A stretch of DNA of 64,000 bases from an uncultured bacterium (GCA_963844965.1 CAWJQC010000004.1:96001-160000), one strand, 5' to 3'. Shown: positions 37,059 through 39,948, numbered from the stretch's first letter. Numbers and translations: made by a program. The notes: generated by a model from the letters alone, not told the origin.

Positions 37059-37127
37059 TTAGAAAGTAGAAAGTAGAAAGTAGAAAGTAGAATTATATGT
37101 TTTATTCTATTTTCTAAATTCTAAATC
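37059..37127. repeat. (TAGAAAG)4 heptamer array plus imperfect inverted partner (ttctattttctaaattctaaat), directly 5' of rplM start
   Basis: Purine-rich and pyrimidine-rich halves can pair with G-U wobbles. Confidence 0.75.
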
Positions 37128-37132
37128 CTTTA

Positions 37133-37486
37133 TTATACGAATTCCACGGCTGCCAGCCGCGAACCGTCCCTTTTTCTGGACTTTTGAAGTTTGATGATCC
37201 TGAGATATCCGCCGGCGCGCGCAGCGTAACGCGGACCCAGTTCTTCATAAATTTTATTGGCGATCCTCGGATTGTGCACGCGTTTCAAGATAAGGCGGCG
37301 TGCCGCCAAATTCTGTTTTTTCGCGATGGTGACGAGGCGCTCCACAACCGGCCTGATGGCCTTAGCTCTCGCCTCGGTAGTTTCAATTCGTCCCACCTTT
37401 ACCAAATCGTTCGCGAGATTGCGTAAAAAAGCACGCCTCTGTCCCCTTAACCTGTGAAATTTTTTCCCTTCTTTTAAATGTCTCAT
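37133..37486 (-). CDS. rplQ: 50S ribosomal protein L17
   Basis: Typical bL17 sequence. Confidence 0.85.
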   Translation of the reverse strand: MRHLKEGKKFHRLRGQRRAFLRNLANDLVKVGRIETTEARAKAIRPVVERLVTIAKKQNLAARRLILKRVHNPRIANKIYEELGPRYAARAGGYLRIIKLQKSRKRDGSRLAAVEFV

Positions 37487-37489
37487 AAA

Positions 37490-37560
37490 CTAGAATCTAG
37501 AAAGTAGAATCTAGAAAGTAGAAGTCTTAGATTCTATTTTCTATTTTCCATTTTCTAGTT
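37490..37560. repeat. TAGAAAG/TAGAATC heptamer array plus inverted partner, directly 5' of rplQ start
   Basis: ctagaatctagaaagtagaatctagaaagtagaag...attctattttctattttccattttctag. Confidence 0.75.
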
Positions 37561-37569
37561 ACGGCGCTA

Positions 37570-38337
37570 TTATGATTTCTTCGTTCTGCCGCGCTTCTTC
37601 GGCGCAGCTGCTTCGGCCTCAACTTTCGGCGCTGCGAATTCCTGGACGTTCAACGCCGAGACCTTCTCAAAATGATCTTTCAGGGCATTAGCCGATTTAT
37701 GCAAAGCCGACGACGGACTGATGGTTCCGTCGGTCTCTATCTCAACGCGCAAGCGGTTATAGTCGGTCCTGTCACCGACGCGCATGTTCTCAATTGAATA
37801 ATTGACCCTCTGCACCGGCGTGAAGATGGCGTCAATGGCTATGGTGCCGATGGAAAGCCGGCCTTCCTTCCGCGCCTCGACCGGCGAGTATCCGAGGCCG
37901 CGCTCCACCTTAACCTCCATATCAAGTTCAGCGTCTTTCGCTGTCAAGGTGGCTAGATAACTGTCCGGATTTACAAGTTCAACTTCCGAGCTCATTTTTA
38001 TCTCGCTGGCAGTCACGCCTTTCTCACCCTTTACCTTCAAGGTCAACACTTGTGGTTCATCGGTATGCATGCGGAATCTCAGTTTTTTGAAGTTCAGGCT
38101 TAGCTCTACCAGGTCCTCTTTGACTCCCGGCAAAGTTGAGAACTCATGGGGCGCGTTTTTGATCTTCAGTTCCGTAACGGCCGCGCCCGGCAGAGACGAG
38201 AGAAGCGCCCTTCGGAGCGCGTTGCCGACCGTAAGCCCGTAACCGGCGTATAATCCTTCAATCTCAAAAACGCCGTTTTTCGCGTCCTCGGAAACGGTTT
38301 TTATGGTAACGGTGGAACTTAAGTGAGAATGCTCCAT
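37570..38337 (-). CDS. rpoA: DNA-directed RNA polymerase subunit alpha, N-terminal domain only (255 aa; no alpha-CTD)
   Basis: alpha-NTD sequence ...GYGLTVGNALRRALLSSLPGAAV...; ends in a Lys/Ala-rich tail. Confidence 0.8.
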   Translation of the reverse strand: MEHSHLSSTVTIKTVSEDAKNGVFEIEGLYAGYGLTVGNALRRALLSSLPGAAVTELKIKNAPHEFSTLPGVKEDLVELSLNFKKLRFRMHTDEPQVLTLKVKGEKGVTASEIKMSSEVELVNPDSYLATLTAKDAELDMEVKVERGLGYSPVEARKEGRLSIGTIAIDAIFTPVQRVNYSIENMRVGDRTDYNRLRVEIETDGTISPSSALHKSANALKDHFEKVSALNVQEFAAPKVEAEAAAPKKRGRTKKS

Positions 38338-38353
38338 TGTTTTTTAATTATTG

Positions 38354-38959
38354 TTATTTGCTGAATGATTCGACCAATAAGTTGACATCAAACGGGGAGG
38401 TAGCCTCCGGAGGCGAAAGCACGCGCCCCTCCAATTTCTCTCTGTCCAAATGAAGCCACGCGGGCGGCTCGTATTTCTTGAGAATTTCGGCTCTCTTCTT
38501 TACCGCGTCAACGTCGCCCTGCGCAGTTATAACATCGCCAGCCTTGACCGAATACCCCGGCGATCTCACCCTGCGCTTGTTAACAAAAATATGGCCGTGG
38601 ACTATAAGCTGGCGCGCCGCTCCGCGCGAAGAAGCAAACCCAACCCTGTAAACCACGTTATCAAGCCGGCTCTCTAAAAATTCCACGATTTTCGCAGCCG
38701 AAGATCCTTTCGCTCTGACCGCCATCGCGAATATTCGCCTCAAATTACGCTCGTCCAAGCCGTAGCTCAACTTGAATTTCTTTTTTTCTTTGAGCTGCAA
38801 CCCGAATTCCGACAAACTCCTTCTTTGACGCTGCGGACCGTGAACGCCCGGCCGGTATGGCTTTCTCACAAAAGCACATTTTGGCGTGGAACAACGCTCG
38901 CCCTTCAGATTAAGGCGCTCGCCGACCGCTCTTTCTTTTTTTTCTTTGGGACCGATCAT
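38354..38959 (-). CDS. rpsD: 30S ribosomal protein S4
   Basis: Zinc-finger-like CSTPKC, S4 domain. Confidence 0.85.
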   Translation of the reverse strand: MIGPKEKKERAVGERLNLKGERCSTPKCAFVRKPYRPGVHGPQRQRRSLSEFGLQLKEKKKFKLSYGLDERNLRRIFAMAVRAKGSSAAKIVEFLESRLDNVVYRVGFASSRGAARQLIVHGHIFVNKRRVRSPGYSVKAGDVITAQGDVDAVKKRAEILKKYEPPAWLHLDREKLEGRVLSPPEATSPFDVNLLVESFSK

Positions 38960-39029
38960 AAACGTAAGTGTAAAGTTAAAAGTGTAAAGTGTAAAGTTTT
39001 TTGGCCATTTCCCATGTCGCTTTTCACAT

Positions 39030-39485
39030 TTATACTCGCCTCACTTTCGGCGGCCGGGGGCCGTTGTGCGGAATCGGCGTGACATCTTTTATGGAAAGGA
39101 CATCAAATCCCTGATTGATGAGAGACCTGATGGCGGAGTCACGACCGCCGCCTATCCCCTTCACGATTATCTCAACCTTGTTCGGACCGGTGTTCTTAAG
39201 CTTCTCCGCGATAACGGCAACAACTTTGGAAGAGGCGAAAGGTGTCGCTTTTTTCGGACCGGAAAAACCCAGGGCGCCCGCGGATGACCAGGCGAGCACG
39301 TCGCCCCGCGTATCCGTCACTGTCACGACCGTGTTGTTGTAAGACGCGTTAATGTAGACGCGGCCTTCTTCTGTTTTCTTGGATTTCTTGGCTGTCTGCG
39401 CGGCCTGCGGCGCTTGAGCCGCCGGGCTTTCTTTCCCGGTCTTAACTTCTTCAGCTGTTTGTTCTTTTATTTTTTTCTTACCCAT
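39030..39485 (-). CDS. rpsK: 30S ribosomal protein S11 (with KE-rich N-terminal extension)
   Basis: ...VTDTRGDVLAWSSAGALGFSGPKKATPFASS... Confidence 0.85.
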   Translation of the reverse strand: MGKKKIKEQTAEEVKTGKESPAAQAPQAAQTAKKSKKTEEGRVYINASYNNTVVTVTDTRGDVLAWSSAGALGFSGPKKATPFASSKVVAVIAEKLKNTGPNKVEIIVKGIGGGRDSAIRSLINQGFDVLSIKDVTPIPHNGPRPPKVRRV

Positions 39486-39487
39486 GT

Positions 39488-39871
39488 TTACTTCAATTCA
39501 ACTTTCCTCTTACCGCTGCCGGCGGTTCTCCGAACGTTTCCGCGGACGGTCCGCGAATTCGTGCGCGTCCGCTGTCCTCTTGAGGGCAGCCGCCGCAAGT
39601 GGCGCGAACCGCGATACGTCTTCAAGTCTTTTAACCTTTGGATATTTCTTTTTATAAGCTGGCGGAGTTCGCCTTCTATCGCGAAATTTTTTTCAACGAT
39701 ATTTTGGACGCGCGCAATCTCTTCGTTCGTGAGCGCGTTCGCCCTTTTATTCATGTCAACTTTGGCCGAACCCAAAATTTTCCGGCTCGCCGGCACGCCT
39801 ATGCCGTAAATATAAGTCAGCGCTATCTCAATTCTTTTATTATCTGGAATGTTAACGCCGAGAATGCGCAT
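39488..39871 (-). CDS. rpsM: 30S ribosomal protein S13
   Basis: MRILGVNIPDNKRIEIALTYIYGIG. Confidence 0.85.
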   Translation of the reverse strand: MRILGVNIPDNKRIEIALTYIYGIGVPASRKILGSAKVDMNKRANALTNEEIARVQNIVEKNFAIEGELRQLIKRNIQRLKDLKTYRGSRHLRRLPSRGQRTRTNSRTVRGNVRRTAGSGKRKVELK

Positions 39872-39872
39872 G

Positions 39873-39948
39873 CGTAGAAAGTAGAAAGTAGAAAGTAGAA
39901 AGTAGAATTATGTTTTTATTCTATTTTCTATTCTCTAAATTCTAGATT
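39873..39948. repeat. (GTAGAAA)4 heptamer array plus inverted partner, within 2 nt of the rpsM start codon
   Basis: gtagaaagtagaaagtagaaagtagaa...ttctattttctattctctaaattctag. Confidence 0.75.

Follow-up and report, generated by a model that had tools for sequence, protein, structure and literature searches.

Heptad-periodic foldback repeats fill stop-start junctions of a ribosomal-protein operon in an uncultured Paceibacteria genome

Why should three cistrons of one ribosomal-protein operon each be preceded by the same repeat-built hairpin? The question is raised by a 64,000-nt stretch of DNA from an uncultured bacterium (GCA_963844965.1 CAWJQC010000004.1:96001-160000; hereafter the window), in which the spacers upstream of rpsM, rplQ and rplM carry three elements, E1, E2 and E3, made of tandem 7-nt units and their inverted partners. 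An earlier note on this DNA had read them as translational control or processing elements placed in front of these particular genes. Our analyses assign E1-E3 to a dispersed family of palindromic, heptad-periodic repeats, and we consider it probable, at roughly 0.6, that such repeats were tolerated at these junctions by folding back on themselves and were then kept under constraint.

All three elements lie in the minus-strand operon and fill its spacers: E1 (39874-39951) the rpmJ-rpsM spacer at 39872-39954, E2 (37488-37560) the rpoA-rplQ spacer at 37487-37569, and E3 (37060-37127) the rplQ-rplM spacer at 37056-37132. A covariance model built from the three scored them at 104.6, 90.5 and 81.5 bits, respectively, and mean column identity over the alignment was 83%. 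Read on the plus strand, each consists of 4.7-4.9 tandem TAGAAAG/GTAGAAA units, a loop of 8-12 nt and a (TTCTAnn)n arm. E1 thus comprises a (GTAGAAA)x4.9 array (39874-39907), the loop (39908-39918) and the TTCTAnn arm (39919-39951), and E2 has its arms at 37488-37516 and 37532-37560. E3 is a near-duplicate of E1, with the arms in common and a similar loop. Tandem Repeats Finder (TRF) called 4.7-4.9 perfect heptamer copies in E1 and E3, while the units of E2 alternate between TAGAATC and TAGAAAG, giving a period of 14. With up to two mismatches allowed, TAGAAAGTAGAAAG matched the window 13 times against 0.36 expected, and 12 of the 13 matches fell within E1-E3; TAGAAnnTAGAAnnTAGAA matched 33 times against 0.99 expected.

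RNA folding, which the earlier note had proposed as a check, placed each element below its shuffles on both strands (z -3.3 to -5.5), with an mRNA-sense energy of -23.8 kcal/mol (z -5.2) for E1 and z-scores of -3.4 and -3.3 for E2 and E3. The elements also abut the start codons, as had been stated, the arrays ending 2-4 nt from the ATG of rpsM (39871-39869), the ATG of rplQ (37486-37484) and the GTG of rplM (37055-37053), all on the minus strand. The strand assignment needed correction, since the sequence quoted as mRNA (GTAGAAA...ttctatttt) is antisense to these minus-strand genes. In the mRNA the order is a UAGAAnn-type arm, the loop, (CUUUCUA)n and the start codon, and the G-U pairs claimed for the stem become A·C mismatches, so that the mRNA fold is the weaker one (-18 to -24 kcal/mol for the three elements versus -20 to -29 kcal/mol antisense).

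Illumina-based Logan contigs from two other samples match the element sequences at 99.8-100% identity. Of these two contigs (L001 and L002), one stops within the repeats and the other skips from E3 to rpsM, which is what a collapsed repeat is expected to produce. In L002 (980-1075), a public short-read contig, rplQ-E3 is fused to rpsM through the common repeat, which shows that assembly of these genomes goes wrong at the elements and yields chimeric joins. Together with the array counts and the folds, the contigs from other samples bear out a common heptad-repeat foldback in front of rpsM, rplQ and rplM.

In order to see how the same junctions are built in other species, we compared the operon across relatives. 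By its RpoA, the host belongs to the Paceibacteria/Parcubacteria of the Candidate Phyla Radiation (CPR), near Liptonbacteria, with the best relative 82% identical. Gene order of the operon is conserved across 43 tabulated relatives, in which its seven junctions are bimodal in length, either 1-35 nt or about 60-160 nt. Among the 37 relatives having all seven junctions, each junction was long in only 19-43%, and the number of long spacers per genome ranged from none (14 of 37) to seven. These counts were overdispersed (variance 4.65 versus 1.37, a value reached in 0 of 5000 permutations), and the uneven load indicates that spacer occupancy is set by the genome rather than by the junction.

The foldbacks in these long spacers change in sequence from one species to the next, but a single genome may repeat its own sequence at several junctions (three times each in L003 and L019, twice each in L004, L011, L018, L024 and L034), and unrelated hairpin families fill the same junction in different species. 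TAGAA-type elements in particular turned over: the covariance model reached at most 36 bits in the loci of 67 relatives, compared with 81-105 bits in the window, and a regular-expression search of the relatives' operon loci returned one direct array only (L061). A TAGAA element is present in the infA-rpmJ spacer of L090 (RpsM 81% identical) and of L087, in which the rpmJ-rpsM spacer is very short, the rpmJ stop codon adjoining the rpsM start. What the relatives share is the periodicity. The best autocorrelation period was 7 or 14 nt in 41 of their 67 long spacers, while a period of 7 was best in 3 of 43 coding controls. Periodicity was significant in 39 of the 67 spacers, a hairpin in 34 and both in 23. 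Whatever their sequence, the spacers of the clade bear the 7-nt period as a hallmark. As for polymorphism between strains, exact-protein look-ups returned no record for RpmJ and RpsM, and identical copies only for RplQ.

The TAGAA family itself extends well beyond this operon. An exact-pattern scan of metagenomes gave 49 loci, from which 38 non-redundant hairpin copies, including the three of the window, were retained. Nine loci were left out, namely L093, an atypical 28-nt match, and L089, L092, L102, L104, L106, L107, L110 and L122. These eight are a different, unrelated type of locus, on contigs poor in open reading frames (ORFs) and dense in TACTTTCTAGAAAGTA-type palindromes, and they are bounded by GTTGTCAAAAGTAGATGAC / ...TTGACAACAC. 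Host G+C of the TAGAA copies was 0.31-0.48. About 29 copies lie between co-directional genes (26 from metagenomes and the three of the window) and 3-5 between convergent ones, whereas divergent gene pairs have none. Except in L121, where the distance is 20 nt, the arrays end 0-6 nt ahead of the downstream start, and the elements begin within a few nucleotides of the upstream stop, with the stop codon inside the first units in 8 of 21 cases. Contexts confirmed by Pfam included tuf, rpsP, rplO, rplN, rplP, rpsS, rplJ, rpsE, efp, serS and proS as well as nusB, topA, HU, ssb, an MFS transporter, a TraG-like ATPase and a GalT/HIT-like gene. Upstream of rplP in L126 (2034-2335), three complete foldbacks stand in tandem together with about 20 nt of flank that includes an ATG; L113, which is otherwise identical to L126, has one complete copy and starts only 15 nt upstream of it. 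A scan of viral contigs revealed no TAGAA copy.

These observations decide against leaders specific to rpsM, rplQ and rplM, because the same family stands at no fewer than 20 other, unrelated stop-start junctions. Multiple copies, genome-dependent occupancy, family turnover and the presence at other junctions in relatives and distant hosts are the marks of a dispersed repeat and not of a dedicated leader. The earlier note had reasoned that generic dispersed repeats would be missing from orthologous positions in close relatives and scattered at random elsewhere. The first half applies largely, since none of the 67 relatives searched with the covariance model has the family at the orthologous positions; the second does not, as the copies gather at stop-start junctions and translation genes and are conserved.

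Across the 38 copies, the conserved unit is the pentamer TAGAA, or TTCTA in the other arm, at an exact spacing of 7 nt. Two linker bases and the loop vary, and the base preceding TAGAA may be G, A, C or T. As one arm is the inverse of the other, both orientations of the element give the same mRNA layout, stop-(UAGAAnn)n-loop-(nnUUCUA)n-0-6 nt-start. Indeed, a subfamily with GC-rich 'TACG' loops occurs in both orientations relative to the downstream gene, and a consistent strand asymmetry was rejected, since the G·T-bearing strand of the TAGAA family is sense in 14 copies and antisense in 15; in the orthologous pair L085/L108 the wobble sits on opposite arms. Structure prediction gives a ladder in which 5-bp AU-rich helices alternate with 2x2 loops. 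Orthologous copies, i.e. copies of one family at one junction in two species, were 64-83% identical, whereas 4-fold sites in the flanking rpsM, rpsK, rplQ and rpoA genes were 29-47% identical and thus essentially saturated (40-67% at the 9-10 sites of rpmJ). In the pair L120/L131, one arm is 100% conserved over 33 nt with the loop wholly replaced and the flanking coding sequence 77% identical. Conservation above synonymous sites implies that the copies are not decaying neutrally.

Start codons in this operon have little or no Shine-Dalgarno (SD) sequence, as the earlier note had remarked, but the elements are not the reason. In the relatives, pairing of the 20 nt upstream of the starts with the anti-SD gave -1.05 and -0.63 kcal/mol with and without an element, compared with -4.2 kcal/mol for coding sequence, and relatives with short spacers look the same; SD absence is therefore a property of the operon and not an effect of the hairpins. 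The main hairpin takes up a median of 87% of the spacer, and the leftover tails sum to a median of 12.5 nt, compared with 14 nt for element-free spacers. Two further likenesses concern the ribosomal RNA. The final 7 nt of a Bacillus-type 16S rRNA 3' tail (...CCUCCUUUCUA-3') are exactly complementary to UAGAAAG, and the start-adjacent arm (CUUUCUA)n is identical to that tail; the match may be a coincidence.

Several other roles in expression were considered and rejected. In phage T4 genes 25 and 38, an SD located 5' of a hairpin is brought beside the AUG; for such a split ribosome-binding site, anti-SD pairing at the upstream stop was at coding background (-4.3 versus -4.2 kcal/mol). Internal promoters formed by the TAGAAT -10-like boxes reached 9-of-12 matches only, and their number did not exceed that in shuffles (7 versus 4.3±2). 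No element was called as an intrinsic terminator, the mRNA sense having neither a GC-rich stem nor a U-tract. A three-frame stop cassette as the reason for period 7 found a real effect in a minority only, the sense 5' arms closing all frames in 30% of cases compared with 12% of shuffles.

On this basis, we propose that a palindromic element can be inserted into a stop-start junction of 1-30 nt within an operon. It would then be co-transcribed with the operon, and all five spacer elements of the host operon (E1-E3 and the two described below) fall within the transcription unit predicted from the infA promoter. Folding back would take about 87% of the inserted spacer out of the gap, so that stop and start lie no farther apart than where there is no element, and insertions between SD-less coupled cistrons are probably tolerated for this reason. 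An unfolded 80-nt spacer at such a place would be harmful, and selection would keep the element foldable, which is probably why arms are conserved while loops and linkers drift. Candidate routes of spread are transposition based on hairpins or single-stranded DNA, or recombination together with replication slippage in steps of 7 nt, a step size that agrees with the preference suggested for slippage in heptanucleotide repeats of bacteria (PMC4679880).

A number of observations weigh against this proposal. A ribosomal-protein gene lies downstream in about 12 of 26 junctions, by our own estimate far more than the proportion of ribosomal-protein genes in a small genome would lead one to expect, which would also fit a real function, as would conservation far above synonymous sites. 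Linker dinucleotides were less complementary than shuffled partners (70 versus 98 Watson-Crick pairs) and deviations in the pentamers were not compensated within the TAGAA family (2 versus 0.9 expected). Without covariation it is the sequence and not the pairing that is visibly conserved, which does not follow simply from a requirement for the fold alone. Where an operon has several copies of a family, these nearly always point the same way (17 plus-only versus 1 minus-only matches). Over 37 copies, the longest common substring of the two flanks was on average no longer than in shuffled pairs (3.84 versus 3.81 nt, p = 0.44), giving no sign of target-site duplication, although element boundaries are fuzzy and duplications of 2-3 nt could escape this comparison; flank repeats picked out by eye, ATTATG in L084 and CCATG in L113/L126, were not general. 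Classical cut-and-paste transposition of the kind used by miniature inverted-repeat transposable elements (MITEs) is thus unlikely. No transposase was found among ten ORFs of the window that were screened, and as no autonomous partner was seen, mobility is deduced from distribution only. Finally, the evidence on the host genome comes from a single 64-kb window.

The alternative that retains some weight, although we consider it unlikely, is a general intercistronic translation element that organises initiation at internal cistrons lacking an SD. A terminating ribosome might melt the lower stem and expose the start, thereby enforcing coupling, or the arrays might bind S1, a Csp-like or another protein specific for single-stranded RNA, as proposed for the TAACTGA repeats, which provide a precedent before start codons in ribosomal-protein operons (PMC4679880). 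Such a role would fit the start codon that nearly always follows 0-6 nt after the array, the stop codon at or inside the other end, cistrons without SD, the excess beside ribosomal-protein and translation-factor genes, and orthologous copies conserved above synonymous sites. However, 14 of 37 relatives run the operon without a long spacer, occupancy depends on the genome, and the TAGAA family shows no covariation. Moreover, with unrelated families at one junction, a single sequence-specific binder cannot explain them all, and the tight start position is dictated by insertion into 1-30 nt spacers.

A broader form of this idea, which seems rather improbable to us, is that the foldbacks make up a CPR-wide intercistronic class that, at internal cistrons, replaces the SD and coupling through short spacers, or that spreads by a new mechanism. 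The hairpins could gate termination-reinitiation, or could pair or compete with the 3' tail of the 16S rRNA. The new mechanism could work without target-site duplication, reading a 5-nt motif at 7-nt spacing and using stop-start junctions as targets.

Less probable still are modules for RNase III processing or mRNA stability, in which imperfect stems of 25-30 bp, by being cleaved or by stopping exonucleases, would divide the polycistronic mRNA into pieces of unequal lifetime. Some REP, ERIC and Correia elements act in mRNA processing or stability, the foldbacks are long and lie within the predicted transcription unit, and elsewhere in the window heptamer inverted repeats flank the gene of a 23S-rRNA-intervening-sequence protein, an arrangement of the kind that RNase III excises from rRNA. 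Yet the stems consist of AU-rich 5-bp helices broken every 7 nt by mostly mismatched 2x2 loops, and among the strong spacers of relatives the better fold was that of the antisense strand in 39 and that of the mRNA strand in only 15 (p = 3e-5).

We give little credence to local expansion of simple sequence, i.e. 7-nt slippage with a hairpin-templated second arm and without transposition. In its favour, period 7 dominates in the window and in the relatives regardless of sequence, direct-only arrays exist (51642-51666), and no target-site duplications were found. It does not account for the near-identical copies, loop included, at different junctions (E1/E3 and the three copies each of L003 and L019), and the same TAGAA architecture at unrelated junctions of genomes with 31-48% G+C requires copying from locus to locus or strong convergence.

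Gene-specific autoregulatory leaders bound by S4, L17 or L13 are very improbable. E. coli regulates its alpha operon at the rpsM leader, and the elements do stand immediately 5' of rpsM, rplQ and rplM. The same sequence, however, precedes three different cistrons here and tuf, rplP, topA and an MFS transporter elsewhere, and none of the relatives searched has it in the orthologous leaders. The likeness to the E. coli S4 pseudoknot (RF00140, Alpha_RBS) is that of a structured RNA at the rpsM start; unlike it, the present structure is a hairpin, precedes many unrelated genes and is absent in relatives. Alpha_RBS reached 16.2 bits in a permissive search, far below its gathering score of 38, neither the L13 nor other leader models matched, and an Rfam search of the whole window at gathering thresholds returned two tRNAs and a fluoride riboswitch only. 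The elements are unlike the E. coli pseudoknot and specific to a lineage, as the earlier note had surmised. Equally remote are heptad operators in double-stranded DNA for a ribbon-helix-helix-type protein in nucleoid organisation, segregation or repression, for although the omega repressor of pSM19035 binds 7-bp heptads in direct and inverted orientation, and the 5-bp core with two free bases at exact 7-bp spacing, the inverted arrays and the conservation of sequence rather than pairing resemble such sites, many unrelated heptad families share one genome and the sites lie at stop-start junctions of highly transcribed operons and not at promoters, with 0 metagenome copies between divergent genes.

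The reading as dispersed, tolerated foldbacks can be set beside known bacterial repeats. ERIC/IRU, Correia/NEMIS, RUP, BOX and REP/BIME are multi-copy, extragenic, imperfect palindromes of 40-150 nt. Like the present elements, they occur in either orientation, often within polycistronic mRNAs, and their occupancy varies between strains or species. Here, in contrast, the arms are arrays of 5+2-nt heptads and not unique terminal inverted repeats or REP palindromes, the targets are stop-start junctions of 1-30 nt, and no target-site duplication was found. As in MITEs, the whole element is an inverted pair, here of arrays, but with internally repetitive arms. REPINs are intergenic palindromic repeats of the REP type (PMC3116915). 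REP units are imperfect palindromes of 20-40 nt that start with a conserved GTAG-type head, and in REPINs, which are mobilised by RAYT, a Y1 transposase, they stand as inverted doublets; in the 38 copies the (TAGAAnn)n arms are not palindromic and have no conserved GTAG-type head, and neither a RAYT nor an IS partner was seen. An integron attC site, with R''/R' cores (RYYYAAC ... GTTRRRY) at the ends of an imperfect palindrome between mobile cassettes, was rejected, as the ends (...AAAGAATCTAGAA / TTCTACGC) lack a GTTRRRY core and the flanks are a syntenic ribosomal-protein operon, and so was a HutP-type (UAG-N4)3 site, which leaves the families without UAG unexplained.

Cyanobacterial STRR are heptanucleotide repeats, too. 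Long simple sequence repeats of this kind are simple direct arrays, whereas the present ones are inverted-paired, copied between loci and conserved across species beyond neutral sites. Heptanucleotide repeats are described as the commonest long tandem-repeat class, mostly intergenic, and 7-nt polymerase slippage has been proposed for them (Mrazek 2007, as summarised in PMC4679880). The closest likeness is to the TAACTGA heptamer direct repeats of marine Beggiatoaceae, some Cyanobacteria and Bacteroidetes (MacGregor 2015, PMC4679880), which are tandem 7-nt units standing only a few nucleotides 5' of start codons, in many cases inside ribosomal-protein operons. They over-represent COG J (translation) and occur without ribosome-binding sites. 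As in a minority of the present elements, stop triplets within TAACTGA-type repeats close all three frames, and their distribution suggests horizontal spread without a known mechanism. E1 and E3 likewise are start-proximal, tandem, intergenic 7-nt arrays beyond chance. TAACTGA repeats, on the other hand, form 169 direct sets versus one inverted and have no predicted structure (PMC4679880), whereas the present arrays are inverted pairs with a loop that fold back the whole spacer, come in many families and have CPR hosts; E1-E3 and 23 of the 39 periodic spacers of relatives are significant foldbacks.

TIGR arrays, which guide Tas proteins by RNA and are common in CPR, have units of about 36 nt with two alternating 8-12-nt repeats and two 9-nt variable spacers, run to 5-15 repeats and lie beside a Nop-domain gene (PMC12045711). 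They, too, are short-unit repeat arrays of Patescibacteria missed by standard annotation. A TIGR array was rejected for the present elements, which have 7-nt units, no variable 9-nt spacers, a single inverted pair and flanking ribosomal-protein genes. A search of the available literature gave no description of repeats like ours in CPR or Patescibacteria, and they are apparently undescribed for this group, a heptad-periodic foldback variant of bacterial intergenic repeats.

The host operon (36213-40377, minus strand) runs infA-rpmJ-rpsM-rpsK-rpsD-rpoA-rplQ-rplM-rpsI, all on the same strand, with infA at 40159-40377, rpmJ at 39955-40068, rpsM at 39488-39871, rpsK at 39030-39485, rpsD at 38354-38959, rpoA at 37570-38337, rplQ at 37133-37486, and rplM and rpsI at 36213-37055, both with frameshifts. 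A perfect sigma-70-type promoter, TTGACA-18-TATAAT with 12/12 matches, lies upstream of infA (40438-40467, minus strand). Judged against relatives, a full-length rplM requires two frameshifts at about 36880-36930 and rpsI one at about 36430-36490; either these are assembly indel errors or the essential genes are genuinely disrupted. The rpoA product has 255 residues with RNA_pol_L and RNA_pol_A_bac domains and without the alpha C-terminal domain, which looks like a clade feature, as relatives match over the same length.

The three operon elements described earlier are confirmed, but two more had been missed. One, at 40069-40158 (minus strand), fills the infA-rpmJ spacer with units of the CGAAT/ATTCG family spaced 8-10 nt (-35.4 kcal/mol, z -4.9) and has the architecture of E1-E3 in another sequence family; its ortholog in the close relative L003 (RpoA 82%) is 64% identical, compared with 33-67% at 4-fold sites. 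The other, at 38960-39029 (minus strand), fills the rpsK-rpsD spacer with a GTAAAGT/AAGTGTA heptamer array of 4.6 copies and a weak partner, and has no significant fold (z +0.6 and -1.2). Over the whole window, period 7 is the largest class of tandem array, with 23 of 66 TRF rows.

Heptad arrays stand in other settings as well. (GTAGTAG/GTAGGTA)n arrays at 4488-4522/4633-4656 and 11544-11577/11688-11740 form long-range inverted repeats that belong to two paralogous large proteins (2973-4625 and 8555-11680, the latter with Peptidase_S74). One arm lies in the 5' untranslated region and the other within the first ~45 codons (...ATTYYLLPTTYY...), jointly enclosing the start codon and a conserved stretch of about 110 nt. 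The repeats around the 23S-rRNA-intervening-sequence protein gene (13807-14187, PF05635) are GGTAGGT.../...TACTACC arrays at 13746-13787 and 14208-14238, one arm of which reaches into the codons for the leader peptide of a prepilin-like gene (12934-13797). The layout at 13746-14238 resembles an RNase III-excised intervening sequence set between protein-coding genes. Directly 5' of an hsp20 gene (26399-26884), an AU-rich heptad foldback at 26298-26392 (AAAAATT/CATTTTA units, z about -4.5 to -4.9) could be an RNA thermometer. The strongest foldback of the window, at 12201-12300, is built of GATACTAAT-type units and reaches -36 to -43 kcal/mol (z -8 to -11.5). A minus-strand gene lies on either side of it; one has a weak cupredoxin-like match that stays below the Pfam cutoff, the other has no assignment. 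The direct-only array at 51642-51666, (TTGGAAA)x3.6, lies about 10 nt 5' of a probable ATG of a minus-strand gene whose end is at about 51636. This array lacks an inverted partner and is similar to the TAACTGA repeats.

Repeats of other kinds occur, too. A class I aminoacyl-tRNA synthetase gene (22307-25167) has a histidine-phosphatase domain inserted (residues 460-563) and a broken frame thereafter, and its apparent coding continuation holds decamer arrays, CGCGGACAGA / GACAGACGCA, at 24725-24763 and 24924-24958, with similar arrays at 1188-1321 and 15284-15325. Nested inverted repeats about 2.6 kb apart (30267-30294/32852-32879 and 30516-30560/32586-32631) bracket a segment that contains the fluoride riboswitch (30655-30716) and several small genes.

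CPR genomes are among the smallest and most streamlined known, and in some CPR lineages most junctions of the core ribosomal-protein operon carry foldback repeats of 70-130 nt. Such repeats break or mis-join short-read assemblies, as in L001 and L002, and inflate apparent intergenic DNA, and they could serve as strain markers. If they are merely tolerated, they show how a palindrome inserted between coupled, SD-less genes can start out neutral and later be held in place by selection. If they are functional, they would represent an SD-independent way to organise initiation or mRNA processing in a large group of uncultured bacteria.

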